The notes below the pieces were generated by a model, which saw only the letters and a program-made list of their open reading frames with translations, did no database searches and had not been told where the DNA came from. Position numbers and translations under genes: made by a program. Below are positions 21,401 to 60,718 of a stretch of DNA of 64,000 nt, in pieces. Position 1 is the first letter of the stretch; every line of letters starts with the position of its first letter. Origin of the DNA: Bacteroidia bacterium (GTDB lineage: Bacteria > Bacteroidota > Bacteroidia > Bacteroidales > VadinHA17); NCBI GenBank assembly GCA_026391215.1, contig JAPLDX010000056.1:44827-108826 (forward strand), read 5' to 3'.

Positions 21401-24400
21401 ATTTGAATAAGAAACAATGAATGAGCCTTCGGCAGCAAAAGCTGATCCTGCAAAATTATTGTCTATCGCCTGTACGCTCCAGTAATAGGTGCCTGCCGTG
21501 AGGCTTTTTATCGTCCAGGAATTGGCTTGAGCGGCCCCTCTCTGAACTATTCTCCTGTATCCTCCAGGCAGTGCTGCCATAGGAGACTTCCTGTTCACTG
21601 AGCCTGCAATGGTTCCAATATAAACATTATATGTGAGCCCGCTCTGTGCGGTTTTTGTGTCAGTTGATTTATTCCAGCTCAATGTTACTTTGTTTGCTCC
21701 AAGGCTTGCCTGCAGGTTCGTGGGCGCTGCAGGAACAGTATTTGCGGCAGATGTGTTATTCTTGTATACTTTCGTTACACTACCTGTAGAAATTAAATAA
21801 CCTGTAAGTAATACATCAAGATCTCCGTCATTGTCATAATCACCAAGGGTAACAGAAGAGTTATATACTGTTGCCAGTGAGTATCCTGTCAAAGTATTCG
21901 TAATATCAATTGTTGTATCACCGTCATTACGGTAAAACTTAGTAATATAAGAATCTAAGTTATCGTCCCAGCCGTTCAAAATAATATCCAGGTCCCCATC
22001 ATTATCAAGGTCACCCCAGGCTGCAGTGCTCTCATAAATCCCGATCAATCCAGCATTCATATCTGTAAAGACACCTGCATTATTCCTATAGATTTTTGAT
22101 ATGCCGCCTCCGGTAAGCAGGATATCGAGGTCACCATCGCTGTCATAATCTCCCCAGACCGCAGAACAATTGGTCACACCTGTCAAACCGGCATTGATAT
22201 TGGTGAAAATGCCATTGTCATTCCGATAAACCAGTGAATTCCAGCTGCCAACTAACAGGATATCCAGGTCGCCATCATTATCATAATCACCCCAGGCTGC
22301 AACTGAACCGCCGCCTGTTCCGGCTAAACCTCCATTGATATCTGTGAAAATTCCGGCATCGTTCCTGTAGATTCTCGAAATATCAGTTGATCCGTCATAG
22401 CCTGTTAATAAAATATCCAGGTCACCGTCATTATCATAATCGCCCCAGACAGCTGAACCATCCCAGATTCCGGTTAAACCTGCAGCTATATCTGTGAAAG
22501 TGCCGGCATCGTTCCTGTAGATTCTTGAAATGCCATTTGATCCTACATAACCCGTCAATAAAATATCCAGGTCACCGTCGTTATCATAATCACCCCATGC
22601 AGCAGAGCTCCTGTATACTCCGGTTAAACCGGCACTAATATCATTATAAACGCCAAGATCATTCCTGTAGATTTTTGATATCGCTCCTGAGCCTGAGTTT
22701 CCTGTAAGTAATATATCCAGGTCTCCGTCGTTATCATAATCAGCATACGCGACCGAACCTAAATCCACCCCGGTCAAAGCGATACCTGTTTGTTCTGCAA
22801 AGGCAGGAACACTTATTTTCACCTCATTGGAAGCATATTCAATCGCATTCTTTATTGAAGCACAAACCACATAGTAGGTCCCGAATGCCGCAAAATTAGG
22901 TGTGTAGGTCGTTCCTGTGGCCCCTGAAATTGACTGATCATAAGGACCTCCGCTAACAGTCGAATATTTCCACTGCCGCGATGTCGGTGTGCTTGACTCA
23001 GTGACTGTCAGTACAGTGCCGTTCTGATTTACTCCTAAAACCTGGTCGGCTACCGGAGCAATAGAATTCGAGAAGGCAACCGTAAATGTCCCTTCAGTTG
23101 CAAAGGCTGATCCCGCAAAATTATTGTCTATTGCCTGTACGCTCCAGTAATAAGTGCCTGCGGAGAGCCTGTTAATAGTCCAGGAATTGGTTTGAGTAGC
23201 CCCGCTCCGGACAATTCTCCTGTATCCGTCAGGCAGAGCTGCCATTGGAGATTTTTTGTTTACTGTGCCTGCAGTAGTTCCTATATAAAGATTATAAGTG
23301 AGCCCGTTCTGCGCAGTTTTTGTGTCTGTTGATTTGTTCCAGGAGAGCGTAACCTTGTTCGCTCCAAGACTTGCCTGAAGATTCGTGGGTGCTGCCGGAA
23401 CGGTATTTGCCGGTGATGTGTTATTCTTGTATACCTTTGAAACACGTCCGTAAGAGCTTAAATAACCGGCCAGCAAAACATCCAGATCCCCGTCGTTGTC
23501 ATAATCGCCAAGGGCCACAGAAGAGTTGTATACTGCTGCCAGTGAGTATCCTGTTAAAGTATTTGTGATATCAATGATTGTGTCAGTGGCATTACGGTAA
23601 AACTTAGTAATATAAGAACTTAATGTATTGTTATAGCCGTTTAATATAATATCAAGGTCTCCGTCATTATCAAGGTCGCCCCAGACCGCAGTGCTCTCAC
23701 TTACCCCGGTCAGGCCAGCATTGATTTCGGTGAAAATCCCTGCATTGTTGTTATAGACTTTTGATATGCCGCTTCCGGTAATCAGGATATCGAGGTCTCC
23801 ATCGCTGTCATAATCGCCCCATGCAGCAGAACCATCCGAGATCCCGGTTAAATCGGCAGTAATATCTGTGAAAATTCCTGCATCATTCCTATAGATTTTT
23901 GAAACGGAAATTGACCCGTTATAACCTGCTAATAAGATATCCAGGTCTCCATCATTATCATAATCACCCAATGCTACCGAACTTGAGCTGACTCCGGTTA
24001 AACCGGCATTGATATCTGTAAAAGTGCCTGCATCGTTCCTGTAAATCTTTGAAATATAATAGTCACCAGAATTCCAATAGTAACCTGTCAATAATATATC
24101 CAGGTCTCCATCATTATCATAGTCACCCCATGCGGCAGAACTCTCTACAACTCCTATCAAACCTGCGTTAATATCATTATAAACGCCTAGATCATTCCTG
24201 TAAACCCTTGATAAAAAGTCCGAATTCGAGTATCCGGTCAGCAAAATATCCAGGTCACCGTCACTGTCATAATCACCCCATACTACCGAACAATCATCTA
24301 ATCCTGGTAAAGTGATCCCTGTCTGTTCTGCAAAGGCAGGAACACTTATTTTCACCTCATTGGAAGCATATTCAATCGCATTCTTTATTGAAGCACAAAC

Positions 24401-27400
24401 TACATAGTAGGTCCCGAATGCTGCAAAATTAGGCGTATAGGTTGTCGCTGTGGCCCCTGAAATTGTCTGATCATAAGGACCTCCGCTTATTGTTGAATAC
24501 TTCCACTGCCTCGATGTCGGTGTGCTTGACTCGGTGACTGTCAGTACAGTGCCGTTCTGATTTACTCCTAAAACCTGATCGGCTACCGGAGCAATGGAAT
24601 TCGAGAAGGCAACTGTAAATGAGCCTTCAGTTGCAAAGGTTGATCCCGCAAAATTGTTGTCTAGCGCCTGTACACTCCAGTAATATGTACCAGCTGTAAG
24701 CTTTTTTATTGTCCAGGAATTGGTTTGAGTACCTCTCTGAACGATTCTCCGATATCCTCCGGGCAGGGCTGCCATGGGAGATTTTTTGTTCACCGAGCCT
24801 GCAGTGGTTCCTATATATACATTATAGGTGAGAGCATTCTGCGTGGTTTTTGTATCGGTCGATTTGTTCCAGCTTAATGTTACTTTGTTTGCTCCAAGAC
24901 TTGCCTGGAGATTTGTGGGTGCTGTCGGAACGGTATTCGCCGGTGATGTGTTATTCTTGTACACCTTTGAAACACGCCCGGAAGAGCTTAGGTAACCGGC
25001 CAGTAAAACATCCAGATCCCCGTCATTGTCATAATCTCCCAGGGCCACAGAAGATGAGTACACTGCTGCGAGGGAGTATCCTGTCAGGGCATTAGTGATA
25101 TCAATAGTCGTGTCTGTGTCATTACGGTAGATTTTTGCTATATAAGAACCTAAGATGTCGTCCCAACCGTTTAAAATAATATCAAGATCACCGTCATTAT
25201 CAAGGTCACCCCAGACAGAACTGCCATTATATATCCCTGGCAAATCTGCATTGATTTCGGTGAAAACGCCTGCGTTGTTTTTATAGATTTTTGATATTCC
25301 ACCTCCGGTAATCAGGATATCTAGGTCACCATCGCTGTCATAATCTCCCCAGGCAGCAGAGCCACCTGATATTCCCTGTAAACCTGCATTAATATCAGAA
25401 AAAATGCCATTGTCATTCCTGTATATTATTGAATTCCAGCTGCCCGTTAACAGGATATCCAGGTCGCTGTCATTGTCATAATCACCCCATACAACAGAAC
25501 TGCCGCTGACTCCGGATAAACCTGCATTGATATCTGTGAAAACTCCTGCATCGTTCCTGTAGATTTTTGAAACAGAATTTGATCCGTCATAACCCGTTAA
25601 TAAAATATCCAGGTCACCATCATTATCATAATCACCCCAGGCTACTGAACCTTCATAAACTCCGGTCAAACCTGCATTAATATCTGTAAAAGTGCCTGCA
25701 TCGTTCCTGTAAATCTTCGATATATAATTCAAGCCAGAGCTATAGTATCCACCTGTCAATAATAAATCCAGGTCGCCATCATTATCGTAATCACCCCATG
25801 CAGCAGCACTCCATTCAACTCCTGTTAAACCTGCGTTAATATCATTATAAACGCCGAGATCATTCCTGTAAATCCTGGAAATATATCCCGAATTCGAGTA
25901 TCCTGTCAGTAAAATATCCAGGTCGCCATCGTAATCATAATCACCCCATACTACCGAACAATTATCTACACCTGTTAAAGCGATCCCTTTCTGTTCTGCA
26001 AAGGCAGAAACACTTATTTTCACCTCATTGGTCGCATAATCAATCGCATTTTTTGACGATACACAAACCACATAGTAGGTACCGAATGCAGAGAAATTAG
26101 GCGTATAGGTTGTTGCTGTGGCTCCTGAAATTGACTGATCATAAGGGCCTCCGCTTACTGTCGAATACTTCCACTGCCTCGATGTCGGTGTGCTTGACTC
26201 AGTAACTGTCAGTAAAGCGCCGTTCTGATTTATTCCTAAAACCTGATCTGCCTCAGGAGCAATGGAATTTGTGAAGGCAATCGTAAATGAGCCTTCAGTT
26301 GCAAAGGCTGATCCTGAAAAATTGTTGTCTATCGCCTGTACGCTCCAGTAATATGTGGCTGCTGTAAGCTTTTTTATTGCCCATGAATTGTTTTGAGTAC
26401 CTCTTTGGACTATTCTCCTGTATCCTCCGGGAAGGGCTGCCATTGGGGATTTTTTGTTCACCGAGCCTGCAGTTGTTCCTATATATACATTATAGGTGAG
26501 TCCGTCCTGTGCGGTTTTTGAGTCTGTTGATTTGGTCCAGCTTAATGTCACCTTGTTCGATCCAAGACTTGCCTGGAGATTCGATGGAACCGCTGGAACA
26601 ACATTTGCGGTCAGAGAATTATTTTTATAGATCTTCGAAATATAACCTGAAGAGCCACTACCGGTCAGTATTATGTCAAGATCGCCGTCGTTATCATAAT
26701 CGCCCCAGGCTGCTGAGCTGTTAGAAGCTCCTTCAATCGGTTCCTCAATATCAGTAAAAACACCGCTGTCATTCCGGAATATTTTGGAATAACCGGCACC
26801 TGTCAGCAGAATATCCAGGTCACCATCATTATCATAGTCGCCCCAGGTTGCAGAACCATAGTTTATTTCAGCTAAACCTGCATCTATTCCGGTGAAGACT
26901 CCTGCATTGTTGTTATAGATCTTTGATACGCCGCTTCCGGTAAGCAGGATATCGAGGTCACCATCGCTATCATAATCTCCCCAGGCAGCAGAACCACCGT
27001 ATGTTCCTTCCAACCCTGCATTAATATCGGTGAAAATGCCATTGTCGTTCCGGTATATTTTTGAATTCCAGCCGCCTACTAACAGGATATCCAGGTCACC
27101 ATCGTTATCATAATCGCCCCATGTAACAGAACCATAACTGACTCCGGTTAAACCAGCATTGATATCGGTAAAAACGCCTGCATCGTTCCTGTAAACCTTT
27201 GAAATAATATGCCATTCAGTGTCATAATATTCACCAGTTAATAATATATCCAGATCACCGTCGTTGTCATAATCGCCCCAGGCTACTGAACTGCCGTTAA
27301 CTCCGGTCAAACCTGCACTGATATCCGTGAAAACACCTGCATCGTTCCTGTATATTATTGAAACATAATTTGATCCGCTATGGCCTGATAATAAAATATC

Positions 27401-30400
27401 CAGGTCGCCATCATTATCATAGTCGCCCCATGCGACAGAACTCCTGTACACTCCTGTTAAGCCAACACTGTCATCCGTGAAAACACCTGCATCGTTCCGG
27501 TATATTTTTGAGCTGTAACCTGATCCGTTATCACCAGCCAATAAAATATCCAGATCACCGTCGCTGTCATAATCACCCCAGGCTACAGAGCCTCTATTAA
27601 TTCCCGTTAAACTTATCCCTGAGGGTTCAACAAAGGCAGGAACACTTATTTTCACTTCATTGGTCGTATATTCAATTGCACTTTTTGTAGCCACACATAC
27701 TACATAGTAATTCCCAAATACTGAAAAATTAGGCGTGTAGGTTGTCCCTGTGGCCCCTGCAATTGTCTGATTATAGGGACCGCCGCTCACAGTGGAATAT
27801 TTCCATTGTCTCGATGCAGGGGTGCTTGATTCAGTCACTGTAAGTACAGAGCCGTTTTGATTTAGCTTCAATATCTGAGCCGTATCAGGAGAAATGGAAT
27901 TCGAGAAGACAACAGTAAATGAGCCCTCAGTTGCAAAAGCCGATCCTGCAAAATTATGGTCTATTGCCTGTACACTCCAGTAATATGTTCCTGCTGCAAG
28001 CTTTTTTGGCATCCAATTATTTCCCTGGATCAATCCTCTCTGGACAATTCTCCTGTATCCACCTGGCAGGGCTGCCATGGGAGATTTTTTGTTAATTGTT
28101 CCGGCAGCAGCGCCAATATAAAGATTATACGAAAGACCATCCTGGGGTGTTTGTATATCTGTTGTTTTGCTCCACGAAAGTGTTACTCCGCTTCCTGTAA
28201 CATTTGCAGCCAGGCCTGAAGGCTTAACAGGAGCGGTATTCAGTACAGAATTATTGTTTTTGTATATTTTTGATACAGGCCCTTCACCTGAGGTACCTGT
28301 TAGTAAAATATCCAGATCACCATCGTTATCGTAATCACCCCAGGCCGATGAACCTGTCTGAACCTTTTCTAAATACGAAAAAACCTCTGTAAAGACGTTA
28401 TTGTTGTTCTGTATGATTTTAGATATTAATCCGTCGTAGGTAGTACCGGTCACTAAAAAATCCAGGTCGCCGTCGTTGTCATAATCGCCCCAGTCTACTG
28501 AACCCTGATAAAAGTTAGGTAAGGAGTAATCTATTGAAGAAAAAGCCCCGGCATTATTGTTGAATATTCTCAAATTATAAACAGTTGACCATAAAACATC
28601 GAGATCACCGTCATTATCATAATCGCCCCAGGCAACTGAAGCGGCTGGATTGTTGTAGAATCCCGGATTAATACCGGTAAAAGAACCATTATCGTTCCTG
28701 TATATTCGTGAAAATCCATTAATTGCATCATTGTAACCAGCAAGCAAGATGTCAAGGTCGCCGTCATTATCATAATCGCCCCAGTCAACTGAACTTTCCC
28801 TTGCCCCGATCAGGCCGGCATTAATATCTGTAAAAATCCCCGCATCATTCCTGTATATTTGTGAGATACATAAGTTACTGGCATTATAGCCGGTCAACAG
28901 AATATCGAGGTCGCCGTCATTATCATAATCAGCCCATGCAACTGAGCCAATGTGCACTCCAGGTAAATAAACACTGATATTCTTAGTGAATGTACTATCG
29001 CCATTATTGTCCCAGATTTCAGAAACCGGACCAGCGTCTGAATAACCAGTTAATAAAATATCCAGGTACCCGTCATTATTATAATCACCCCATGCCACTG
29101 AACTTTCATCGACCCCTGGCATTAAAGTTCCTGCCAGCTCTGTAAATTTATTGCTGCCACCGTTCTTATAGATCTTGGAAACCCTGATGCCGGAACCTGT
29201 CCTGCCCGTCAATAAAATATCCTGATCCCCATCATTATCATAATCACCCCAGGCAACAGAACTATTATAGACACCTGTTAAGCTTATCCCTGTCTGTTCA
29301 ATAAAGTTTGTAACAATTATTTTTACCTGGTTGCTGGTATATGCCGTTCCACCAAATATCGATTCACATACAATATAATAAATGCCATCGGCCGGGAAGG
29401 ATGTAATACATGTGGTTCCGGTAGCACCTGCAATCGCCTGAGTGTATGGGCCACCGCTTACGGTTGAGTATTTCCACTGGCGCGAAGTGGGAGTGCTTGA
29501 TTCCGTCACAGTTAATGTCGCGCAGTTTTGATTTTTTAATATAGCCTGTTCACCAGTCGGAATAATTGAATTTGAAAAGGGAATCGTAAAAGTGCCTTCA
29601 GCAGCAAAAGCTGAACCGGCAAAACCGTAGTCGATAGCCTGTACACTCCAGTAGTACGTGGCTGCCGGCAATTTCTTCACGAAATATGTATTGGACTGAA
29701 TATTTCCCCTCCGGACTATTTTTCTGTATCCGCCCGGTACAACTGCCATTGGTGAACATTTGTTCACTGTACCAGTAGCGGTGCCTATATAGATGTTGTA
29801 CGAGAGACCGTCCTGCGATGTTTGAGTATCAGTTGATTTGCTCCATGTAAGAGTTGCTTTGCCACCCGTTACACTTGAACCAAGCCCTGAAGGTGATGCA
29901 GGAAAGGTATTTGCAACAGCACTGTTATTTTTATAGATCTTCGAATAACCACTGCCGGTCAGTAAAATATCAAGGTCGTTATCCTTGTCATAATCCCCCC
30001 ATGCAACGGAGCTGTAAGAAACACCGGTTAATCCTGCGCTGATATCGGTAAAAGTACCTGCATTGTTGTTGTAAACCTTAGAAATATCAGCAGAACCGGA
30101 ATATCCTGTAAGCAGAATATCCAGGTCGCCGTCGTTATCATAATCACCCCAGGCAGCAGAGCTATATCGTACTCCGGTTAAACCTGCATTAATATCCGTG
30201 AATGTGCCGCTGCTGTTATTGTATATCCTTGCATTATATCCGGAATCCCAGTTATACCCTGCCAACAGAATATCGAGATCGCCATCTTCATCATAATCGC
30301 CCCATGAAGCAGAACTGTAGGTTACACCCTCTAATCCGGCATTAATATCAGTGAAAATGCCACTGTCATTACGGTATATTTTTGCAATCGGGCCATCCAT

Positions 30401-31018
30401 AAAAGAATAACCAGTCAGAAGAATATCCAGGTCACCGTCATTATCATAATCACCCCATGCTACTGAACTGTTATCAACTCCTGTTAAACCGGCCTCAATA
30501 TCAGTAAAGATACCATTGTCGTTGCGATAAACCATTGATATATAAGTACCCTGAAGGCTGCCAGTAAGCAATATATCAAGGTCCCCATCATTGTCGTAAT
30601 CTCCCCATGCAACTGAACCGTAATTGACTCCAGCTAACCCCGCATTTATATCGGCAAACGTTCCGGCATCGTTCCTGTAAATTTTCGAAGTGTTGCTTCC
30701 TGTCAGTAAAATATCCAGGTCGCCGTCATTATCATAATCACCCCATGCTGCAGAACTGAAAGAAACTCCTGTTAAGCCGGGAGCTGCTATAGCGCTGAAG
30801 GCTCCTGCTGTATTCTGGTAGATTAAAGCATTCCCGCTTCCCGTCAAAAGAATATCAGGATCCCCATCATTGTCATAATCGCCCCAGGCCACTGAGCCTC
30901 TTGAGATCCCTGTTAATATAATTGGCTGCTCGGTAAATGCCTGGCTGAAAAGATCAGGCGCCGCAAGGCAAAACAATAATAATCCCAGACAGGTGAATCG
31001 GAGTAAAGGAGTTCTCAT
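18449..31018 (-). CDS. Giant (4189 aa) T9SS-secreted FG-GAP/VCBS-repeat protein
   Basis: Signal peptide. I count 48 copies of the W-G-D-Y-D-N-D-G-D-L-D-I-L-L-T-G calcium-binding blade motif in seven modules (7,7,7,7,6,7,7). After each of the first six modules come an FN3-like domain (LSWSKSTD...YYWSVQAID) and an Ig-like domain (SRQWKYSTVSGGPY). Three further FN3 domains and a type-A CTD (YVYPNPASKNITL) close the protein. Confidence 0.9.
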   Translation of the reverse strand: MRTPLLRFTCLGLLLFCLAAPDLFSQAFTEQPIILTGISRGSVAWGDYDNDGDPDILLTGSGNALIYQNTAGAFSAIAAPGLTGVSFSSAAWGDYDNDGDLDILLTGSNTSKIYRNDAGTFADINAGLAGVNYGSVAWGDYDNDGDLDILLTGSLQGTYISMVYRNDNGIFTDIEAGLTGVDNSSVAWGDYDNDGDLDILLTGYSFMDGPIAKIYRNDSGIFTDINAGLEGVTYSSASWGDYDEDGDLDILLAGYNWDSGYNARIYNNSSGTFTDINAGLTGVRYSSAAWGDYDNDGDLDILLTGYSGSADISKVYNNNAGTFTDISAGLTGVSYSSVAWGDYDKDNDLDILLTGSGYSKIYKNNSAVANTFPASPSGLGSSVTGGKATLTWSKSTDTQTSQDGLSYNIYIGTATGTVNKCSPMAVVPGGYRKIVRRGNIQSNTYFVKKLPAATYYWSVQAIDYGFAGSAFAAEGTFTIPFSNSIIPTGEQAILKNQNCATLTVTESSTPTSRQWKYSTVSGGPYTQAIAGATGTTCITSFPADGIYYIVCESIFGGTAYTSNQVKIIVTNFIEQTGISLTGVYNSSVAWGDYDNDGDQDILLTGRTGSGIRVSKIYKNGGSNKFTELAGTLMPGVDESSVAWGDYNNDGYLDILLTGYSDAGPVSEIWDNNGDSTFTKNISVYLPGVHIGSVAWADYDNDGDLDILLTGYNASNLCISQIYRNDAGIFTDINAGLIGARESSVDWGDYDNDGDLDILLAGYNDAINGFSRIYRNDNGSFTGINPGFYNNPAASVAWGDYDNDGDLDVLWSTVYNLRIFNNNAGAFSSIDYSLPNFYQGSVDWGDYDNDGDLDFLVTGTTYDGLISKIIQNNNNVFTEVFSYLEKVQTGSSAWGDYDNDGDLDILLTGTSGEGPVSKIYKNNNSVLNTAPVKPSGLAANVTGSGVTLSWSKTTDIQTPQDGLSYNLYIGAAAGTINKKSPMAALPGGYRRIVQRGLIQGNNWMPKKLAAGTYYWSVQAIDHNFAGSAFATEGSFTVVFSNSISPDTAQILKLNQNGSVLTVTESSTPASRQWKYSTVSGGPYNQTIAGATGTTYTPNFSVFGNYYVVCVATKSAIEYTTNEVKISVPAFVEPSGISLTGINRGSVAWGDYDSDGDLDILLAGDNGSGYSSKIYRNDAGVFTDDSVGLTGVYRSSVAWGDYDNDGDLDILLSGHSGSNYVSIIYRNDAGVFTDISAGLTGVNGSSVAWGDYDNDGDLDILLTGEYYDTEWHIISKVYRNDAGVFTDINAGLTGVSYGSVTWGDYDNDGDLDILLVGGWNSKIYRNDNGIFTDINAGLEGTYGGSAAWGDYDSDGDLDILLTGSGVSKIYNNNAGVFTGIDAGLAEINYGSATWGDYDNDGDLDILLTGAGYSKIFRNDSGVFTDIEEPIEGASNSSAAWGDYDNDGDLDIILTGSGSSGYISKIYKNNSLTANVVPAVPSNLQASLGSNKVTLSWTKSTDSKTAQDGLTYNVYIGTTAGSVNKKSPMAALPGGYRRIVQRGTQNNSWAIKKLTAATYYWSVQAIDNNFSGSAFATEGSFTIAFTNSIAPEADQVLGINQNGALLTVTESSTPTSRQWKYSTVSGGPYDQSISGATATTYTPNFSAFGTYYVVCVSSKNAIDYATNEVKISVSAFAEQKGIALTGVDNCSVVWGDYDYDGDLDILLTGYSNSGYISRIYRNDLGVYNDINAGLTGVEWSAAAWGDYDNDGDLDLLLTGGYYSSGLNYISKIYRNDAGTFTDINAGLTGVYEGSVAWGDYDNDGDLDILLTGYDGSNSVSKIYRNDAGVFTDINAGLSGVSGSSVVWGDYDNDSDLDILLTGSWNSIIYRNDNGIFSDINAGLQGISGGSAAWGDYDSDGDLDILITGGGISKIYKNNAGVFTEINADLPGIYNGSSVWGDLDNDGDLDIILNGWDDILGSYIAKIYRNDTDTTIDITNALTGYSLAAVYSSSVALGDYDNDGDLDVLLAGYLSSSGRVSKVYKNNTSPANTVPTAPTNLQASLGANKVTLSWNKSTDTKTTQNALTYNVYIGTTAGSVNKKSPMAALPGGYRRIVQRGTQTNSWTIKKLTAGTYYWSVQALDNNFAGSTFATEGSFTVAFSNSIAPVADQVLGVNQNGTVLTVTESSTPTSRQWKYSTISGGPYDQTISGATATTYTPNFAAFGTYYVVCASIKNAIEYASNEVKISVPAFAEQTGITLPGLDDCSVVWGDYDSDGDLDILLTGYSNSDFLSRVYRNDLGVYNDINAGLIGVVESSAAWGDYDNDGDLDILLTGYYWNSGDYYISKIYRNDAGTFTDINAGLTGVSSSSVALGDYDNDGDLDILLAGYNGSISVSKIYRNDAGIFTDITADLTGISDGSAAWGDYDSDGDLDILITGSGISKVYNNNAGIFTEINAGLTGVSESTAVWGDLDNDGDLDIILNGYNNTLSSYITKFYRNATDTIIDITNTLTGYSLAAVYNSSVALGDYDNDGDLDVLLAGYLSSYGRVSKVYKNNTSPANTVPAAPTNLQASLGANKVTLSWNKSTDTKTAQNGLTYNLYIGTTAGTVNKKSPMAALPDGYRRIVRSGATQTNSWTINRLSAGTYYWSVQAIDNNFAGSAFATEGTFTVAFSNSIAPVADQVLGVNQNGTVLTVTESSTPTSRQWKYSTVSGGPYDQSISGATGTTYTPNFAAFGTYYVVCASIKNAIEYASNEVKISVPAFAEQTGIALTGVDLGSVAYADYDNDGDLDILLTGNSGSGAISKIYRNDLGVYNDISAGLTGVYRSSAAWGDYDNDGDLDILLTGYVGSNGISRIYRNDAGTFTDIAAGLTGIWDGSAVWGDYDNDGDLDILLTGYDGSTDISRIYRNDAGIFTDINGGLAGTGGGSVAAWGDYDNDGDLDILLVGSWNSLVYRNDNGIFTNINAGLTGVTNCSAVWGDYDSDGDLDILLTGGGISKIYRNNAGVFTDMNAGLIGIYESTAAWGDLDNDGDLDIILNGWDDNLDSYITKFYRNDGDTTIDITNTLTGYSLATVYNSSVTLGDYDNDGDLDVLLTGYLISTGSVTKVYKNNTSAANTVPAAPTNLQASLGANKVTLSWNKSTDTKTAQSGLTYNVYIGTIAGSVNRKSPMAALPGGYRRIVQRGAAQANSWTIKSLTAGTYYWSVQAIDNNFAGSAFAAEGSFIVSYSNSISPVTDQSLLINQNGTVLTVTESSTPTSRQWKYSTVSGGPYDQTITGATGTTYTPGFSSYGTYYVVCVSTKNAIEYATNEVKISVPAFTEQTGLNLTGIYRGSVAWGDYDSDGDLDILLTGDDGSNYISKIYRNDAGVFTDIIAGLKGVYRSSVAWGDYDNDGDLDILLTGEYYNSGWFYVSNIYQNDAGVFTDKNAGLAGVYDGSVALGDYDNDGDLDILLTGYDGSNSVSKIYRNDAGVFTDITAGLTGVNASSVAWGDYDNDGDLDILLTGNSDSRIYRNDTGVFTNINAGLAGVSNSSVAWGDYDNDGDLDILLTGSGYSKIYKNDAGIFTDINAGLTGINYGSVTWGDYDNDGDLDILLTGSGYSKIYKNDAGVFTDINAGLTGINYGSVTWGDYDNDGDLDILLAGSYTSKVYKNNSIVANTVPSAPTNLLASALSVNKVSFTWNKATDSKTPQNTLTYNIRIGTAAGGSSIVGPMASVSTGFRRIPAIGNAELRSNGYTITNLAPGKYYWSVQAIDQAYAGGAWAAEGQFNLLAAPVASAATNIAETSFTSHWSASTGATGYKLDIATDSTFTTIVTGYNSKDVGNITSANVSGLTSGSIYYYRLRAYNAGGTSIVYSNVIKTITLGIPAAPVATDATSVVQTSFTANWNSSPNANSYELDVSTSNTFSSFLPGFSNIYVGNVTSYSVTGLTANTVYYYRVRASNSYGASLNSGTITVTTLMNPPATPAGLTASSCNNLVTLSWTAITDANFLRYIIFGGTSASPTTKIDSTSTISSVAKTISGLTPGVTYYFRVTAVNTVGMASSYSSEVSAKVKKGVVPKIKAKWNNVLICYNVGDSLTSWQWFKGGIAISGATKQYYVTAKSPGSYYVWATDKNGCQNPSAAINITGTKSAYVYPNPASKNITLSISGDDYGRTLIRFYNSTGVKVIELQTEKLDFKLDSEIALPGLQSGTYTIEVLVNNELFSTSKIVVIK
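20100..30950. repeat. In-frame coding super-repeats (1533-1668 nt) and 135-138-nt blade repeats inside the giant gene
   Basis: The marker TGTTCTGCAA recurs at 22791, 24324 and 25992 (periods 1533 and 1668 nt). Long stretches such as 22791-23100 and 24324-24640 are nearly identical. Confidence 0.85.
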
Positions 31019-53799: not shown

Positions 53800-53946
53800 A
53801 AATAGTTAATTTTCAGATTATTATGAGATAGCTTAAAATATTGTTACAACTGTTTTTGTTAATAATTAAAAATCTGTTTTTATTCTGAAAACAATTCAAA
53901 CTTCGTAAATTTATTTATAATCTAAAAGAGGAAAAACCTTATCTTT

Positions 53947-55035
53947 TTAATTTATCAGAACACTATTCACCATTTTACTGTGGCATTTCAATACCCGACT
54001 TTTTTCAATATCTCTAAGGCATATGCCATTGCCTAAGCAATATTTATAATTTTTACAGCTTGCGCATTGATTTGTTTTTGTCCAGTCTCTATTTCTAAAC
54101 GGCTGATATTTAGTAGTCCACACGTCTATCAAACTCTCTTGAAGTATGTTTCCTTGAATCAATTTTCTATTGATATTTGGACAAGCAGAGATAGAACCGT
54201 CATGTAATATTGATGCAATATTTATTCCTGCCCTGCAAAAATAGAATTCATCTCTCACCACTCCTTCATAGTTCTCTAAAAATCCGTCACAACCATAGTT
54301 TATGTTTATTCCCTTTCGTTTTTTCGCATTCTTAATAAACTCTAATGTTTGGATTAATTCTTTTCCATTAATATTCAATTCTTTATGTTTGCTTGCTCTC
54401 CCAATCGGGTCAATTGTAAATAACCTCCAATTCTTCACATTTAAGCCAATAAGCAAGTCATAAATTTTATCGAGTTCACCAATATTTCTTAATGTAACGC
54501 AGGTTGCAACATCAAATGTAATATTCTCATATTTTGAAACTAAACTTATCGCCTTAACGGTTCTATCGAAACTCAGCGCATTATTTCTAAGCCAATTGTG
54601 ACTATCCTTTAGTCCGTCTAAGCTAATTGTTAGTGAAGTTAATCCACTTTCGATTAAATTAGTTAATCGTTCATTATCCAAAAGAAAACCATTTGTTACT
54701 AATCCCCACTTATAGCCTAATTTCGAAATTTCTGAGCCGAAAATCTCAATGTCTTTGCGAATCAATGGTTCTCCACCTGTAATTACAACATGAGGTAGTT
54801 TATTACCAACCAGCTTTTTAATTCTAGCTAATTCAATTACTATTAGCTGATAAGGTAAATCATTTGAGTTTTCAATACCGCAATTACTTCCACAATGCAA
54901 ACAACTGAAATTACATTTCAGGGTGCACTCCCAGAACAAATATTTTAAATCATGTAGTTGAGTTTGAGATTTTCTAAATGACTGGAATAGCCTTAAACTC
55001 AGCTTTTTTTGCAAATTCATTTTATTTTGCACCAT
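53947..55035 (-). CDS. Radical SAM / SPASM-domain enzyme
   Basis: CNFSCLHC (CxxxCxxC) near aa 41-48, ITGGEP, and a C-terminal Cys-rich SPASM region (CRAGINIASILHDGSISACPN ... CASCKNYKYCLGNGIC). Confidence 0.85.
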   Translation of the reverse strand: MVQNKMNLQKKLSLRLFQSFRKSQTQLHDLKYLFWECTLKCNFSCLHCGSNCGIENSNDLPYQLIVIELARIKKLVGNKLPHVVITGGEPLIRKDIEIFGSEISKLGYKWGLVTNGFLLDNERLTNLIESGLTSLTISLDGLKDSHNWLRNNALSFDRTVKAISLVSKYENITFDVATCVTLRNIGELDKIYDLLIGLNVKNWRLFTIDPIGRASKHKELNINGKELIQTLEFIKNAKKRKGININYGCDGFLENYEGVVRDEFYFCRAGINIASILHDGSISACPNINRKLIQGNILQESLIDVWTTKYQPFRNRDWTKTNQCASCKNYKYCLGNGICLRDIEKSRVLKCHSKMVNSVLIN

Positions 55036-55433
55036 TACTTCGGATTTAAGACAAAATCGCAGTTCTCTAACTCGTTCGGAAGTAATTCCACTGTTTTAGT
55101 CGAATTCTGAAATTCACCATTATCAGCACCGTCAATATCTTTTGCTTCAACTGTGTATTGTTGTGGTTCTAAGTACTCAACAACATAGTTACCAGTATTA
55201 TCTGTTTTAATGGTTCTTGAATTTTCTTTTATTGAAATTTCGATATCCTTAATTGCCTCGCCCGAACCTGAAGATGTTACTTTACCTTTTATAGTTCCTG
55301 TAATATCTGCAATATCACCATATTTGCAACACATGGTCAATAAAGAAATGCTACCAAATCCAAATGCAAAACCTGCATTTTTTAAAATTTTCCGCAGCAG
55401 ATAGTCTTTTACTCTAATTTTTTGGTTCTTCAT
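55035..55433 (-). CDS. Radical-SAM-associated putative lipoprotein (transthyretin/CarboxypepD_reg-like beta-sandwich)
   Basis: 132 aa. Long basic N-region, then SISLLTMCC (lipobox followed by a second Cys), then GTIKGKVTSSGSGEAIKDIEISI...TDNTGNYVV. Its stop overlaps the rSAM start (TAATG). Confidence 0.6.
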   Translation of the reverse strand: MKNQKIRVKDYLLRKILKNAGFAFGFGSISLLTMCCKYGDIADITGTIKGKVTSSGSGEAIKDIEISIKENSRTIKTDNTGNYVVEYLEPQQYTVEAKDIDGADNGEFQNSTKTVELLPNELENCDFVLNPK

Positions 55434-55536
55434 AAATCATTCAATTTTTAATGATACACAAGGTACTTGTATACATAATTTGGGGGTAAAGAGTTACTTT
55501 CTTGCATCAATATTTGTTCGAATATAATCATACTTT

Positions 55537-56655
55537 CTAATCTATCTTTTTAATTGTATAGAACTCAGAAAAGTTAATGCTATATCCTAAATCCCTTTGA
55601 GGAAAGAATATCAATCCCATATGCAAAGATTCAATCAAATCTGATTTACTCCAACTTTCTCCACCATCTTTAGTTTCATAGCAAATGCTGCCTTTAAATG
55701 TTGGAAAATCACCGCCCTCATAAACCGCAACATTTTCAATATTAAATCCTTCATTTTCATCATAAAAATGCAATGTTCCAAAATTTGTAAATGGAAAATC
55801 AGTTTTAATCCAGTTTAAACCACCGTCAACCGTTTTGTACACAGCCGTTATGCCATCAATAAATCCAATATTCTCGCTGTAGAAGTATATGTGATTAACA
55901 TCATGGTATGCTTCAATGGGTGTGCTTATTGTTTCCCAATTATAACCATAATCTAAACTTTTAAATATTTTTTGGTTTTCGCCGGCAATAAAAATTATAT
56001 TATCGACATAAAATAATTTATCATCGGAAGGTCTGATTGGTAAATAAATCAAATTCCAGTGTATTCCCCCATCTGAAGTAAGCGCGATATGTTCATTCTT
56101 TGAATACGGATAATTTGGAGTTTTAATAAGTGCAACACCATTTAAAGTATTAAAGAATTTTAATGATAATATTCGTGAATAATCAGGGAAAAATGTCTTT
56201 GTCCAAGTTTCTCCGCCATCGGTAGTTTTCAATAATACAGAGCCTTTGTCACAATCTGCATCCAAACAACCCCCCATTGCCTGACTTGATGCAAATCCGA
56301 CATTTTCATCAAGAAAAAATACGGAATGCAAGTGTAATGTAGTTCCAGAATTCAGTTCATGCCATGTTTTCCCTGAGTCTACTGTTTTAAGTATATCTCC
56401 ATTATATCCAACGACAAAACCAACACTTGAATTTAAGAAAAATATGTCCCGTGGATTTATGTCAAAACCGTAAATCGATTTTGAAATCACCAAATCATTT
56501 ACAATAATGGTATCCCCATTAATAGAAACATAAACAGACTTGTCTTCATGGTTAATAGGTTCTTTAGTACAATCGAATAATATTGTTGCAGATAAAAGAA
56601 TCGCAATGTTTAATTTAAGAATAGTAAATACTATATCAAAAGTTGGTCGATGCAT
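55537..56655 (-). CDS. BNR/Asp-box beta-propeller lipoprotein (Ycf48/sortilin-like)
   Basis: Lipobox ILFDC. Six Asp-box-like motifs: VDSGKTW, TDGGETW, SDGGIHW, LDYGYNW, VDGGLNW, KDGGESW. Confidence 0.7.
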   Translation of the reverse strand: MHRPTFDIVFTILKLNIAILLSATILFDCTKEPINHEDKSVYVSINGDTIIVNDLVISKSIYGFDINPRDIFFLNSSVGFVVGYNGDILKTVDSGKTWHELNSGTTLHLHSVFFLDENVGFASSQAMGGCLDADCDKGSVLLKTTDGGETWTKTFFPDYSRILSLKFFNTLNGVALIKTPNYPYSKNEHIALTSDGGIHWNLIYLPIRPSDDKLFYVDNIIFIAGENQKIFKSLDYGYNWETISTPIEAYHDVNHIYFYSENIGFIDGITAVYKTVDGGLNWIKTDFPFTNFGTLHFYDENEGFNIENVAVYEGGDFPTFKGSICYETKDGGESWSKSDLIESLHMGLIFFPQRDLGYSINFSEFYTIKKID

Positions 56656-56671
56656 TTTTTTGTATTTTCAT

Positions 56672-57124
56672 TTATTTCATTTGTTTTCCAAGATAAGTTC
56701 CATCTGGCTGCTTTACTTTTATGGTGAAGTTTTCGGGTAAAGAATCTCTATTACATAGAATTTTACGATTCAGATACACCATAATATCTGGACAAATAGT
56801 GGCATTGACCTGAACATTTTTCCACGCTTCAATGATTACATCCCGATTTTGTCTGGAAATATTAAAGCGACTGAAACTTGAGCATCCATTGGAACTGATT
56901 GTTCCCCAAAAATTAATCTCGAACAATCCATTATATAGTAGTGTTTCGGGTGTTTCAGGGTAGCTAATTGTAAGACTATCAACTTTTATCAGGTATTCTT
57001 TATAGATTGATTCTTTGATTGATTCTTTTGTACAGGATGTAAAGGATGTAATTAGTCCTGAGACAAATAATAGCTTAGCAGTAAATAGAAAATTATACTT
57101 ACAAAAATTACATTTTGGTTTCAT
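56672..57124 (-). CDS. Small lipoprotein, unknown function
   Basis: 150 aa, signal plus lipobox (ITSFTSC-TKES). Lies 16 nt upstream of the propeller gene. Confidence 0.5.
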   Translation of the reverse strand: MKPKCNFCKYNFLFTAKLLFVSGLITSFTSCTKESIKESIYKEYLIKVDSLTISYPETPETLLYNGLFEINFWGTISSNGCSSFSRFNISRQNRDVIIEAWKNVQVNATICPDIMVYLNRKILCNRDSLPENFTIKVKQPDGTYLGKQMK

Positions 57125-57249
57125 ATTCTTTTGATTGTAGCTGATGTTTATTTACTTATCATATTTACATTTTCGAGGAACTTTTTGTTTTTTGCATTGA
57201 ATCCTTTGCCAAAACATAATCAATAATCAGGAGTATGATAATAGATTAA

Positions 57250-57630
57250 TTAATATTTCAATTTGCCACTACTTAGAGAAACTACTAAAGTGTCGTTGTC
57301 TTTATAAGCCATAACTTTAGTGTTTACTTCAAATTCTCCGCTTGGGACAGAGGTTACCCTAAAAGAAATTACTAAATCTTTATTAAAATTCTTTTTTGAA
57401 TCCAATTCAACATTTGCATCAAACATCACACCGTCTCCATAAGTTCTGACAGTCACTTTATTGCCATTTGTAGAACCCTCTAATTTCAGGTTTACCATTC
57501 CTCCAGCATTACCTAATCTAGTGAGATACCATTGAGAATTTGTAATGTTAAGTGTAGCAGGACTATTATTTTCTTTTTCAGAACAAGAAGCAAATACAAT
57601 AATTGCCAAAAGAAATACTATATTTTTCAA
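57250..57630 (-). CDS. Small lipoprotein, unknown function
   Basis: 126 aa, signal plus lipobox (IVFASC-SEKEN), beta-rich sequence. Confidence 0.55.
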   Translation of the reverse strand: MKNIVFLLAIIVFASCSEKENNSPATLNITNSQWYLTRLGNAGGMVNLKLEGSTNGNKVTVRTYGDGVMFDANVELDSKKNFNKDLVISFRVTSVPSGEFEVNTKVMAYKDNDTLVVSLSSGKLKY

Positions 57631-57700
57631 AATTTATGTATTATTTAATAATACAATTATCATAATCGAGAATCCAATTTTTTTCATTGTATTACCAACG

Positions 57701-58768
57701 TTATCTTTTCTTTAATGTATATATCTTATAATTACTTATACAGTAAGCAAAATCATTTGTTACAAAATTAATTGTACCAAATCCAAATCTTTTTAATAAA
57801 TCAGACTTTGTCCAGTTTCTCCCGCCATCTGCTGTAGTATAAACGTATGTTCCAATAAAAGAAGGGAAATCGCCACCTATATATGCGGAAGTATCAACAA
57901 TCCAAATTCCGTATTTATAATTACAAAAATGGAAATCCTCAAAAGGCTGTGATGGAGTTGAAAAGAACTTGAATGGAAATTTAATTTCTTGCCATGTATT
58001 TCCACCGTCAGTAGTTTTGAACTTTTTATCTACACAATCCACAAAACCAGTTTTTTCATCAATAAAATAGAATCCACGAATGAAATTTGCTGGTGTTTTT
58101 GGTATATTTATTGTACTCCAAGAAAAACCCTTATAAGTACTTTTATAAATTCTTTGATTCGTTCCTGTTGCATAACTTAATCCCCCCAAATAAAACAACC
58201 CTTTAAATGATTGGTTTAACTCCAGGTTATTATCAGCCCACCAACTTTCTCCACCATCGGAAGTTCTCATAAGATGTGCACCTGAATTATCATAATTTAT
58301 TGCAGTGGCATATAGAGAATCAAAAAATTTCATCGAATACAATCTATATGCAGTAGTGTAATGTCGTTTTGTCCAATGCTTACCACCATCAACTGTTTTA
58401 TACAAAGTGCCATAGTAATCGCCATTAAGGACATTCCCAATTCCATATATAAATCCAGTAGAATCATTTATAAATGATAAGGTAGTTGTCGTTACTCCTA
58501 ATGAATCTTTTTCAATATCTGATTGTTCCCATGACCTTGCATAATCTGTAGTTTTTAGCAGATAACCATTTGAGCCAATAATATATCCGGTTTTTGAATC
58601 AATAAAATCAACATCTTCAGGATATAACCATCTATAATTAAAATCAATTGAGTCTAATTGCCATCCTTTAATTATATCATTGGGAAAATCGTATTCATCC
58701 TTTATACAATTTGAAAGAGTAGTAGTTATGAAAGTAATAATTAACAAGAAATAGATTCTGTATTTCAT
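57701..58768 (-). CDS. BNR/Asp-box beta-propeller lipoprotein, paralog of 55537-56655
   Basis: I place the start at MKYRIYFLLIITFITTTLSNC (ATG 58768), which overlaps the upstream stop as TAATG. Motifs: TDYARSW, VDGGKHW, SDGGESW, TDGGNTW, ADGGRNW. Confidence 0.7.
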   Translation of the reverse strand: MKYRIYFLLIITFITTTLSNCIKDEYDFPNDIIKGWQLDSIDFNYRWLYPEDVDFIDSKTGYIIGSNGYLLKTTDYARSWEQSDIEKDSLGVTTTTLSFINDSTGFIYGIGNVLNGDYYGTLYKTVDGGKHWTKRHYTTAYRLYSMKFFDSLYATAINYDNSGAHLMRTSDGGESWWADNNLELNQSFKGLFYLGGLSYATGTNQRIYKSTYKGFSWSTINIPKTPANFIRGFYFIDEKTGFVDCVDKKFKTTDGGNTWQEIKFPFKFFSTPSQPFEDFHFCNYKYGIWIVDTSAYIGGDFPSFIGTYVYTTADGGRNWTKSDLLKRFGFGTINFVTNDFAYCISNYKIYTLKKR

Positions 58769-59187
58769 TATTTGATTTTCCTGAATGTAAGGCATGATTT
58801 TTTAGTATCAATGTATTTGCAGAACTTGCCAATATTAATTGTCAAATTTGGTTCGTCAAACTTGAAATGGTAAGTTCCTCCTTCCCTTGAACTCGATAAC
58901 CCACTTATTACCGAAATACTATCTTCAGTAATTTTGTACCAATAAGCATCACTACCTATCTTTGGTAGCCAATAGCCATTGGTCATCGCAAAACCTCTGG
59001 ATAGACAAAAGTAGCCTGATATACTGTCTGAATGAAAACTAATTGTATCAGTTTTAGTACTTGTTTCGACCCATGTGCCCGTTAGTCCCTTCGGAAGTGT
59101 GCCTGGGTCTGGGAAATCATCTTTCTTTTCACAGTTTGTTAGAAAGCAGACGAAGATAAGGAGAACAATGAATTTTACGTGTTCCAT
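58768..59187 (-). CDS. Small lipoprotein, unknown function
   Basis: I place the start at MEHVKFIVLLIFVCFLTNC-EKKDD (ATG 59187), giving 139 aa. Confidence 0.5.
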   Translation of the reverse strand: MEHVKFIVLLIFVCFLTNCEKKDDFPDPGTLPKGLTGTWVETSTKTDTISFHSDSISGYFCLSRGFAMTNGYWLPKIGSDAYWYKITEDSISVISGLSSSREGGTYHFKFDEPNLTINIGKFCKYIDTKKSCLTFRKIK

Positions 59188-59218
59188 TTGTTTGCTGCTT
59201 AAGGTGTAATAAAACTTA

Positions 59219-60055
59219 TTATTGGTAATATTCATATCTGCAACAATACCATTCTCCATACTTGGTCGGATGATATCCTATGTATTCAATAACATTCCCA
59301 TCTTTATACGTTGTTTTATCGGAAATAAAATCTCCATACGGACCGTCATAGTATGATTCAACAATTACTTTATCATCTGATTCAGAATAAGTAAACGTTA
59401 TTTCAACTAAAATTGACCAATTTCGGTCATATTCAATAGTCGTTATAATGTTTGAACCTTCATAAGTATAAATTGTATAAATACCTTCAGGATTTTCAAT
59501 CTTTTTTATTTTGTTTTTATTTGAATCATATTCATAAATAATGCTCCACTCTGTACTATTTTCGAAACTATAATCATATTCAGACATTAAAAGATTATTC
59601 GCAAAAGAATATATAATACTATCTGTCAATTCATTTTTGATATATCTTTTTTCGACTATTTTATTCCCCACATAACTATATTTATATATATAGATTAAAC
59701 TAAAATCAGATTCAGTCTGGTCAGAATAATTTTGCCCTTCCATTGCATAAAATTTCTTATTTAATAAAACTCCTTTATCAGAGTATTCATATGTATATGA
59801 AGCATAAACAGGATTAGGATAGTTCGAAAGTAATTTCCTCTTTAAATTCCAGTCTTCATCATATGAATAAGAAATAAAACTATATGGTATAGTATCAGAA
59901 GAAGATGAATAATTGTACTGGGTCTTTATTTTACCAATACTGTGTACATTATATTCGTCCTCCGGAATAATGTTGTTGTTCTCAGGAAGAAGGTTGTCTT
60001 TCTCACAGGAATAAAAAATAAGAGAAAAGATAAATATCAATGCTATCTTTCTCAC
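59219..60055 (-). CDS. Tyr/Glu/Ser-rich repeat lipoprotein (YD-like beta-hairpin repeats)
   Basis: 278 aa. Lipobox LIFYSC-EKDN. Recurrent Y-x-Y-(D/E)-x-x-x-N/K short repeats (YSYDEDWNL, YTYEYSDKG, YEYDSNKNK). Confidence 0.55.
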   Translation of the reverse strand: MRKIALIFIFSLIFYSCEKDNLLPENNNIIPEDEYNVHSIGKIKTQYNYSSSSDTIPYSFISYSYDEDWNLKRKLLSNYPNPVYASYTYEYSDKGVLLNKKFYAMEGQNYSDQTESDFSLIYIYKYSYVGNKIVEKRYIKNELTDSIIYSFANNLLMSEYDYSFENSTEWSIIYEYDSNKNKIKKIENPEGIYTIYTYEGSNIITTIEYDRNWSILVEITFTYSESDDKVIVESYYDGPYGDFISDKTTYKDGNVIEYIGYHPTKYGEWYCCRYEYYQ

Positions 60056-60718
60056 GATATTAGCTTTAGGTCATAAATATCACTGCAAAAATTAAGCCAG
60101 TTTTTACTTCTAAAATTCGAACATTATAGCCTGAAAGTCAATAAATACCGCTTTCTCTTTTCTTAATTTGATATTTGAAGACATCCAAATAAGAAATGAA
60201 CCATTATTTGTATTTTCTTATTAATAGTTTTACCTTAACGCGTCTGAAAATACAAAACCAATGCTGTTTATAACATGATGATTTTTAATAAATTTAATTT
60301 TATAACAATTAGAGTTTGTCATTATACTTGAAAGTACATATGAATATACCCGCTTACTGCTTGGTTTTATTTCCAATTGGCGCATATACTGACTAATATA
60401 ATAATCAATGTTGAAAGTGCTGCTAATTAGTCTGCTGAAAACACCGCATCACGTGGTATATTATAACTTTCACCCTTACCCGTATTAGTTACATAGTAGC
60501 GTAAATAAGTTTTCTTATCTTTGCCAGGAGCAACGAATTTTAAAGTAAATTTCTTAATTTTCATAACGATAATATTACGATGTTTTTATATACAGATTCA
60601 GAAAACAGTAAAAAATCATATAACATTAATTATTAACAACATAACAAACATGCAAGATTAATTTCAAGTAGCAAAAGAACTTCGCAAATTTACCTATAAT
60701 AACAAAATTAGAAACCCA

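Follow-up and report, generated by a model that had tools for sequence, protein, structure and literature searches.

Bacteroidota encode very many lipoproteins without an assigned role, and a long run of such genes beside a radical SAM enzyme raises the question of whether the neighbors form one dedicated system or share no more than an address. The case considered here lies in a 64,000-nucleotide stretch, called the window throughout, from a Bacteroidia bacterium of the VadinHA17 group of Bacteroidales (contig JAPLDX010000056.1, positions 44,827 to 108,826 of the forward strand; assembly GCA_026391215.1). Eight co-oriented open reading frames (ORFs) on the minus strand, named g1 through g8, occupy 53947-60055: six predicted lipoproteins, two of which are β-propellers, followed by a radical SAM (rSAM) pair. 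The original prediction, made from the letters alone, saw in them a surface-lipoprotein module that had been duplicated and linked to an rSAM maturase. The reading favored here, with confidence somewhat better than even, is a patchwork of independent cell-envelope binding lipoproteins in a foreign-looking, recombining island, in which the rSAM neighborhood would be a lineage-specific co-residence. The features of the locus are as follows.

59219-60055, minus strand: g1, a lipoprotein of 278 amino acids (aa)
58768-59187, minus strand: g2, 139 aa from Met25, the second plausible start; the ORF extends to 59259
57701-58768, minus strand: g3, a BNR/Asp-box propeller lipoprotein of 355 aa from Met10; the ORF extends to 58795
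57634-57687, minus strand: a gene stump of 17 codons, MKKIGFSIMIIVLLNNT and a stop, between g3 and g4
57250-57630, minus strand: g4, a β-rich lipoprotein of 126 aa
56672-57124, minus strand: g5, a β-sandwich lipoprotein of 150 aa
55537-56655, minus strand: g6, a seven-bladed Ycf48-like BNR propeller lipoprotein of 372 aa
55035-55433, minus strand: g7, 132 aa, TIGR04134, a CarboxypepD_reg β-sandwich
53947-55035, minus strand: g8, 362 aa, a TIGR04133 radical SAM/SPASM protein
59996-60099, minus strand: leader and signal-peptide cassette of g1, matching the DNA of a related locus, L100
53800-60700: the island of low G + C content (GC) that holds all eight genes, set off by GC steps

Read directly, the minus-strand ORFs of 55537-60055 are indeed six consecutive lipoprotein-type genes of 278, 139, 355, 126, 150 and 372 aa, in the order and at the positions first described. 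Intergenic spacing across g1-g8 ranges from -1 nt to 125 nt. The TAATG stop/start overlap that had been pointed out lies at 58770-58766, between g2 and g3, and the array has a second one between g7 and g8 at 55035. The sequence of g5-g6-g7 was assembled independently, in identical form, from three sequencing runs.

The linkage of these genes was followed in two sets of loci, which are cited below by L numbers. The rSAM-seeded set, gathered with a profile of TIGR04133 homologues, holds 80 loci from the genomes of 80 species with 10-kb flanks; the propeller-seeded set holds 43 loci with g6 orthologues, many of them on short contigs. TIGR04133 and TIGR04134 genes are adjacent, their stop and start codons overlapping, in the 80 other genomes too. 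Homologues of g1-g5 occur in none of the 80 rSAM loci, where g6 has a single weak match, and TIGR04133 occurs in none of the 43 propeller loci. The supposed bond between the lipoproteins and an rSAM maturase therefore fails as a general rule: the propeller and the rSAM pair appear not to be generally coupled, and their linkage recurs only inside one close, uncultured Bacteroidales lineage, that of L137 and L090. Lipoprotein arrays as a general feature of TIGR04133 loci were considered and rejected, the enrichment over the 80 loci being only twofold (lipoprotein genes make up 14% within four positions of the rSAM gene and 7% further away), with one lipoprotein or none within four genes of it in 64 of the 80.

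Within the close lineage the picture is richer. The close rSAM clade shares 70-87% identity with g8, after which identity falls to about 52%, and its rSAM pairs often lie inside runs of small lipoprotein genes. The pair in L090 has three such genes upstream and four downstream, one of them g2-like; six follow the pair in L142, singleton families included. The order in L137 is a leader-cassette lipoprotein gene, the rSAM pair, a gene for a 228-aa lipoprotein, and truncated g5 and g6. L137 is also the contig closest to the window's rSAM pair (85% DNA identity), and its g5/g6 fragments, at 3070-3644, are followed by an unrelated dehydrogenase gene.

Seen from the propeller, the neighbors change from genome to genome. 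A small lipoprotein gene on the same strand adjoins the propeller in 26 of the 43 loci, with three or more such genes in 13. L007 has seven small lipoprotein genes around its g6 orthologue. The families present there are F16, F21, the propeller, F7, g2-like and g4-like; in L096 they are 228L, F4, g5 and the propeller, and in L100 F7, F7, META, F4, g5 and the propeller, the last three standing in this order in both. Homologues of every window family except g3 adjoin g6 orthologues in other contigs, in varying order. The conserved gene order that would have marked a fixed unit is missing, since the genes are shuffled in every relative. Moreover, g5 sits in arrays that lack both the propeller and the rSAM pair in L144 and L145, and the propeller stands without array neighbors in Flavobacterium sp. 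P21 and other genomes, which points to a shared, shuffled gene pool rather than a fixed operon. The same two g5 homologues rule out g5-g6 as an obligate pair. An outer-membrane β-barrel or OmpA-type gene ends several arrays (L007 12821-13531, L090 13354-14925 and, as a 171-aa family, L108-L113); the window island has no such gene.

The composition of the island and its scars tell how such a pool could be shuffled. With g7 counted, this stretch of 6-7 kb combines seven predicted lipoprotein genes with a single radical SAM/SPASM gene. GC is 31.3% over 53947-60055, compared with 42.2% in the rest of the window, and all eight genes, the rSAM pair included, lie at 31-33%. The steps at about 53.8 kb and about 60.7 kb are sharp, and the flanks are of a housekeeping kind (a TPR protein, an aldo-keto reductase, bcp and recA). 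Related loci resemble the window in DNA from 53940 to 60101, and the related arrays themselves lie 3-10 GC points under their flanks in five of six loci checked. At the 5' end of g1, 104 nt comprising the leader, the signal peptide and the C-E-K-D codons are 88% identical in DNA to L100 1339-1443. That cassette heads a 120-aa Cys-rich lipoprotein of another family, and the similarity stops after the C-E-K-D codons. Given this cassette sharing, the limits of similarity, the GC contrast and the low GC of related arrays, the eight genes resemble an island that was acquired or turns over fast, with its content rearranged at conserved lipoprotein 5' ends. A second scar lies between the propellers. 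In L133 and L140 the g3 orthologue is followed by a lipoprotein gene of 176-184 aa, and the stump at 57634-57687, which aligns with the start of that gene, is the remnant of its lost counterpart, left by deletion or recombination; the g3 block and the g4-g5-g6 block were thus joined by such an event.

The intergenic regions bordering the island also carry a perfect 14-nt inverted repeat, TTGTTAATAATTAA, at 53856-53869 and 60626-60639. It occurs nowhere else in the window, where 0.08 occurrences would be expected, and control pairs, resampled or random, yielded a repeat of at least 14 nt in 0.5-0.9% of cases. None of the 167 fetched loci contains it, and it extends no further; chance or an insertion scar may account for it.

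Is there a duplicated module? The two propellers are paralogous, as first supposed: BLASTP aligns g3 and g6 at 34% identity over 334 aa (expect value, E, 2e-53), and both peptides quoted in support are present. The small proteins are as unlike one another as they had seemed. BLASTP finds no mutual similarity among g1, g2, g4 and g5, and alignments of the g2, g4 and g5 family profiles by hhalign are confined to the signal peptide. Since the small proteins are unrelated, no three-gene module has been duplicated; only the propellers are related, and the gene stump lies between g3 and g4. The repeated pattern of two small proteins and a propeller is apparently one of gene sizes and mosaic juxtaposition, not of homology or duplication.

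The propellers belong to a large and already annotated family. In Pfam, g6 scores 57.9 bits with PSII_BNR, above threshold, and g3 scores 49.7 bits with PSII_BNR, likewise above threshold, and 47.8 bits with Sortilin-Vps10. There are 773 homologues of g6, the best 120 at 50-73% identity; such relatives, found in Flavobacterium, Chryseosolibacter and many metagenome-assembled genomes, bear the name 'YCF48-related' or 'photosystem II stability/assembly factor-like'. Orthologues of g3 are found in L133 and L140, at about 70% DNA identity. Structure prediction with fold search, suggested earlier for all six proteins, covers two of them, g6, which proves Ycf48-like, and g5, which has no significant match in the PDB. 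The AlphaFold model of g6 is a seven-bladed propeller of 29 strands, with a predicted local distance difference test score (pLDDT) of 90. Its best PDB fold match is Ycf48 (5OJP/2XBG, E 1e-11, template modeling score 0.62/0.75), followed by Sortilin Vps10 domains, GH74 xyloglucanases and the Streptomyces dispase autolysis-inducing protein, and a propeller profile searched against PDB sequences finds Ycf48 at E 3e-14.

Ycf48/HCF136, a photosystem II assembly lipoprotein (2XBG, 5OJP, 8AM5), thus shares with the window propellers a seven-bladed BNR architecture and an N-terminal lipid anchor (predicted for the window proteins). Identity is only 15-17%, however, and the window's host is not photosynthetic. 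A true Ycf48 identity was rejected, since g3 (66.6 bits) and g6 (56.3 bits) fall far below the equivalog cut-off of 326 bits (NF010237). Ycf48 binds D1 through a patch of six conserved Arg residues (PMC10403576). The g6 family keeps one Arg at 90% or more, R69 being the only such residue among 73 family sequences, and the residue-by-residue alignments to Ycf48 do not reach the region of the patch. Our literature search found nothing on Ycf48-like proteins in Bacteroidota. Closer to home, the BtuG/XusB-type surface β-propeller lipoproteins of Bacteroides feed TonB-dependent transporters (PMC6143338, PMC13142918). The window propellers are also Bacteroidota propeller lipoproteins and likewise probable binders rather than enzymes, but no TonB-dependent transporter stands beside the window genes or recurrently beside their orthologues, and BtuG/XusB proteins are absent from the 50 best PDB fold matches of g6.

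The window copy of g6 differs from its orthologues in several ways. It has Asp in place of Gly or Ser at position -1 of the lipobox, carries an 8-residue insertion after the lipobox that the orthologues do not have, and has no Trp in the W55 column, which is conserved in at least 90% of the family. These deviations may reflect early decay or relaxed constraint.

The small lipoproteins are of narrower distribution. The mature part of g1 consists of about eight divergent YD/RHS-like hairpin repeats with a visible Y-x-Y-D/N pattern, and its family comprises 39 cluster representatives among 1.8e9 proteins, the remotest phmmer hits (E 6e-5 to 3e-4) being proteins rich in RHS_repeat. Neither g1 nor four members of its family reach the Pfam gathering score for RHS_repeat, and g1 has no Pfam family. 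It is nonetheless a predicted RHS/YD-like repeat protein, resembling the RHS/YD-repeat proteins (PF05593) and the DUF4595 porin-like lipoproteins in its Y-x-Y-D/N hairpins; at only 278 aa it is too short for an RHS shell, and it has no toxin domain. Genes like g1, of weak homology, flank g6 orthologues in L097 and L102. Homologues of g2 at 66-73% identity lie beside g6 orthologues in L007, L101 and L129 and beside the rSAM pair in L090. The sole homologue of g4 in the fetched loci is at L007 12292-12660 (57% identity), within the array of the g6 orthologue there. No Pfam or PDB relative was found for g2 or g4.

The remaining small protein, g5, has a family of 51 clusters and immediately precedes g6 orthologues in L096, L098 and L100. 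Its mature part folds, in an AlphaFold model of mean pLDDT 85 whose block means reach 94-97 over residues 71-150, into an eight-strand β-sandwich with conserved Cys residues; the best match to a PDB fold has an E value of only 0.86. The profiles of g1, g2 and g5 found no PDB sequence below E 0.07. Pfam, NCBIfam and PADLOC scans of g1-g8, together with Pfam scans of 18 representatives of neighboring small-lipoprotein families, assigned no family to the window's small proteins; META, DUF4943 and DUF6970 were the only Pfam families among the 18.

All six proteins are plausible lipoproteins. In each, a basic N-terminus leads into a hydrophobic stretch, and a Cys follows at position 16-31; the signal peptide of g1, for example, is MRKIALIFIFSLIFYSC, followed by EKDN. 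The residues originally quoted after the Cys are all in place: EKDN in g1, EKKDD in g2, IKDEYD in g3, SEKEN in g4, TKESIKE in g5 and TKEPINHED in g6. The lipobox Cys never varies among 73 g6-family and five g2-family sequences, and 40 g5-family sequences keep it at 90% or more. Lipoproteins are a common class in this genome. Under a PROSITE-like rule about 8-10 genes score as such among the window's 35 others, and the probability of a run of six is about 2e-4 per start, on the assumption that genes are independent. Because of this low value and the conservation of the Cys within families, the run appears to be more than chance; runs of 4-8 lipoprotein genes are also seen repeatedly in related loci. 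The canonical lipobox, [LVI][ASTVI][GAS]-C, fits only g1 (YSC), g4 (FASC) and g5 (FTSC). The others are non-canonical, with Asn at -1 in g2 (LTNC) and g3 (LSNC) and Asp at -1 in g6 (LFDC), and orthologues of all three carry Gly or Ser there.

The further suggestion that the residues after the Cys direct these proteins to the cell surface holds in part. The export signal was defined experimentally in Capnocytophaga as C-X-K-(D/E)2 with a net negative charge, and its counterparts in Bacteroides and Flavobacterium are S-D-D-like (Lauber et al. 2016, PMC5080379). The window proteins share with the surface lipoproteins of that study the lipobox Cys and the Lys and acidic residues. The strict motif, which places K at +3 and acidic residues at +4/+5, is present exactly in g3 (C-I-K-D-E) and missed by the other five. 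A relaxed rule, asking for at least two acidic residues and a net negative charge over +2 to +6, admits g1, g2 and g4; g5 and g6 fail it, each with only one acidic residue and a net charge there that is not negative. The relaxed rule is satisfied by 28% of 270 distinct predicted lipoproteins in the fetched loci, and since this share is the same inside and outside the arrays, the signal is not distinctive of g1-g6. Lys and acidic residues after the Cys are seemingly typical of the phylum and no special mark of these six proteins.

The rSAM pair had been described as part of an arrangement that could not be assigned to any described system. In fact g8 scores 456.9 bits with TIGR04133 (cut-off 425) and has Radical_SAM and SPASM domains, and g7 scores 45.1 bits with TIGR04134, 'radical SAM-associated putative lipoprotein' (cut-off 39.8), with a Pfam CarboxypepD_reg match at E 4e-10. 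Adjacent, joined by a stop/start overlap and above both cut-offs, the two genes evidently constitute the pair catalogued as 'rSAM_w_lipo'/'lipo_with_rSAM' in NCBIfam and as an 'rSAM/lipoprotein system' at JGI, which is uncharacterized; our search found no paper on TIGR04133/TIGR04134. The catalogued pair differs from the window array in consisting of two genes only, to which the six upstream lipoproteins do not belong. With the pair already defined and the propellers in a large annotated family, each gene of the array is of a catalogued or recurrent family.

Several features of the pair are of interest in their own right. The N-terminal region of the g7 family is unusually conserved (…FGFGSISLLTMC(A/C)KYGD…), the putative lipobox has Met at -1, and C-x(0-2)-YG directly after the Cys is found in 29 of 82 distinct g7 homologues. 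This conserved N-terminus could be more than a signal peptide, for example a candidate recognition site for the rSAM enzyme. Two tandem pairs of a TIGR04134-like lipoprotein gene and an rSAM gene occur in L010 (2760-5755) and L011 (8944-11938), and two TIGR04134-like genes precede a single rSAM gene in L141 (8967-10864) and L142 (9212-11092).

How might such a patchwork work? Sec would export the pre-proteins, which would then be lipidated at the Cys and delivered to the outer membrane. The export signal suggests that g3 probably reaches the surface; the location of the remaining proteins is uncertain. The propellers would serve as non-catalytic binding platforms rather than enzymes, because each consists of one seven-bladed unit whose closest matches are Ycf48 and a protease-binding protein, and because neither a carbohydrate-active enzyme (CAZyme) nor a transporter forms part of the context. 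The small proteins would be single-domain binders. As content and order vary between genomes, these envelope proteins presumably act independently or in loose association, with no fixed machine. The array would be remodeled by recombination inside the conserved 5' regions that encode signal peptides, and the rSAM neighborhood would be shared residence in a lineage-specific variable island, with no obligate link of enzyme to substrate.

Several observations weigh against this account. In at least three independent loci (the window, L090-92 and L137) the same lipoprotein families accompany the rSAM pair, and L096 starts with the gene that follows the rSAM gene in L090 and L137; because of those joint occurrences, there may be a real functional tie within the close lineage. 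A missing rSAM gene is weak evidence on the many metagenome contigs that measure only 2-5 kb. The g6 family is 50-73% identical across orders, which argues for a conserved role. Three of the six lipoboxes are atypical, and the lipoprotein calls come from a rule of our own. Finally, neither a mobility gene nor a clear attachment site sets the island apart, and no integrase, tRNA gene or direct repeat was found at its borders.

Two other accounts, both unlikely, build on the same turnover. In one, the rSAM pair, the propeller and about 20 small-lipoprotein families of this lineage would form a single recombining 'lipoprotein cassette island', a diversity-generating arrangement for envelope or surface proteins in which mature domains are swapped behind leader and signal cassettes and the rSAM enzyme may modify several neighbors, not only its TIGR04134 partner. 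In the other, the array would diversify under attack, its cassette-swapped products being either immunity proteins against envelope toxins or variable receptors or decoys for phages and toxins. The narrow, fast-turning-over families (39 clusters for g1 and 51 for g5), the singleton families of L142, the swap of mature domains behind a conserved leader and signal peptide, the gene stumps, the low GC and the Cys-rich small β domains all suit this idea. Against it, no toxin, type VI secretion system, recombinase or invertible-promoter feature lies nearby, none of the proteins belongs to a Pfam immunity family, and the viral contigs searched hold only distant, generic BNR propellers, with no orthologues and no relatives of g5. 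PADLOC gives no hit for g1-g7, and its hit for g8 is a generic rSAM similarity to viperins, 67 bits against the 457 of TIGR04133. The propeller itself is strongly conserved, unlike an arms-race protein.

The dedicated system of the original prediction, with two surface modules, each of small lipoproteins and a propeller, matured by or working with the rSAM/SPASM enzyme, is quite unlikely on this evidence. It draws on the common orientation, short gaps or overlaps and shared GC of the eight genes, on the close-clade pairs that lie within lipoprotein runs in L090 (3+4) and L142 (six downstream), and on L137, which unites the pair with remnants of g5 and g6. It is contradicted by the two empty surveys, that of 80 TIGR04133 loci for relatives of g1-g5 and that of 43 g6-orthologue loci for rSAM genes, by the unrelated small proteins of the two 'modules', by a gene order that differs in every relative, and by g5 without a propeller in L144 and L145. 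Nor was any shared motif fit for recognition by an rSAM enzyme seen among the proteins.

It is more doubtful again that the locus is an accessory cluster for glycan utilization, with propellers acting as GH74- or sialidase-like hydrolases or binders and small lipoproteins of a SusE/F-like kind. Weak matches to the glycosylhydrolase family F510_1955 in NCBIfam, at 23-28 bits where the cut-off is 175, and fold matches to GH74 xyloglucanases and to 3B7F, a 'putative glycosyl hydrolase with BNR repeats' (E 5e-8 to 1e-6), lend it something. Yet GH74 requires a cleft between two propellers and the sialidase fold has six blades, where each protein here has one seven-bladed propeller; the non-enzymatic Ycf48 is the best fold match, with GH74 ranked below it; and no SusC/SusD, TonB-dependent transporter, regulator or CAZyme is found in the island or recurrently near the orthologues, and the flanks of the island likewise hold no SusC/SusD pair or CAZyme. 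That the lipoprotein-like N-termini are coincidences of AT-rich ORFs, some of them not genes, is hardly credible: three lipoboxes are non-canonical, and AT-rich DNA encodes many Lys, Ile, Phe and Asn, but all six ORFs have homologues elsewhere with the Cys conserved, two (g5 and g6) have confident structure models, and three independently assembled sequencing runs gave identical g5-g6-g7, so that this explanation is largely refuted.

If the locus is a patchwork of independently acting lipoproteins, as favored here, it stands as a modestly interesting accessory island, made up mostly of catalogued, uncharacterized families. Decoupling the propellers from the rSAM pair saves effort on a false 'system'. 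The recombining, lineage-specific pool of small lipoproteins that share leader and signal cassettes offers a place to study how envelope repertoires diversify. The TIGR04133/TIGR04134 pair has no known substrate or function, and the locus is also a place to ask whether the rSAM enzyme acts on lipoproteins. No description was found of the shuffled association of Ycf48-like propellers with small lipoproteins, or of its lineage-specific union with TIGR04133/TIGR04134.

Beyond g1, a gap of 660 nt (60056-60718; 26-30% GC) leads to bcp. It holds no credible gene; its small ORFs include one of 45 aa at 60427-60564 on the minus strand. An Rfam scan of 53-61.5 kb returned nothing credible. Only the last 45 nt or so of the gap before g1 are kept in relatives. 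The largest ORF of the window lies well away from the island, a single frame of 4,189 aa at 18449-31018 on the minus strand.

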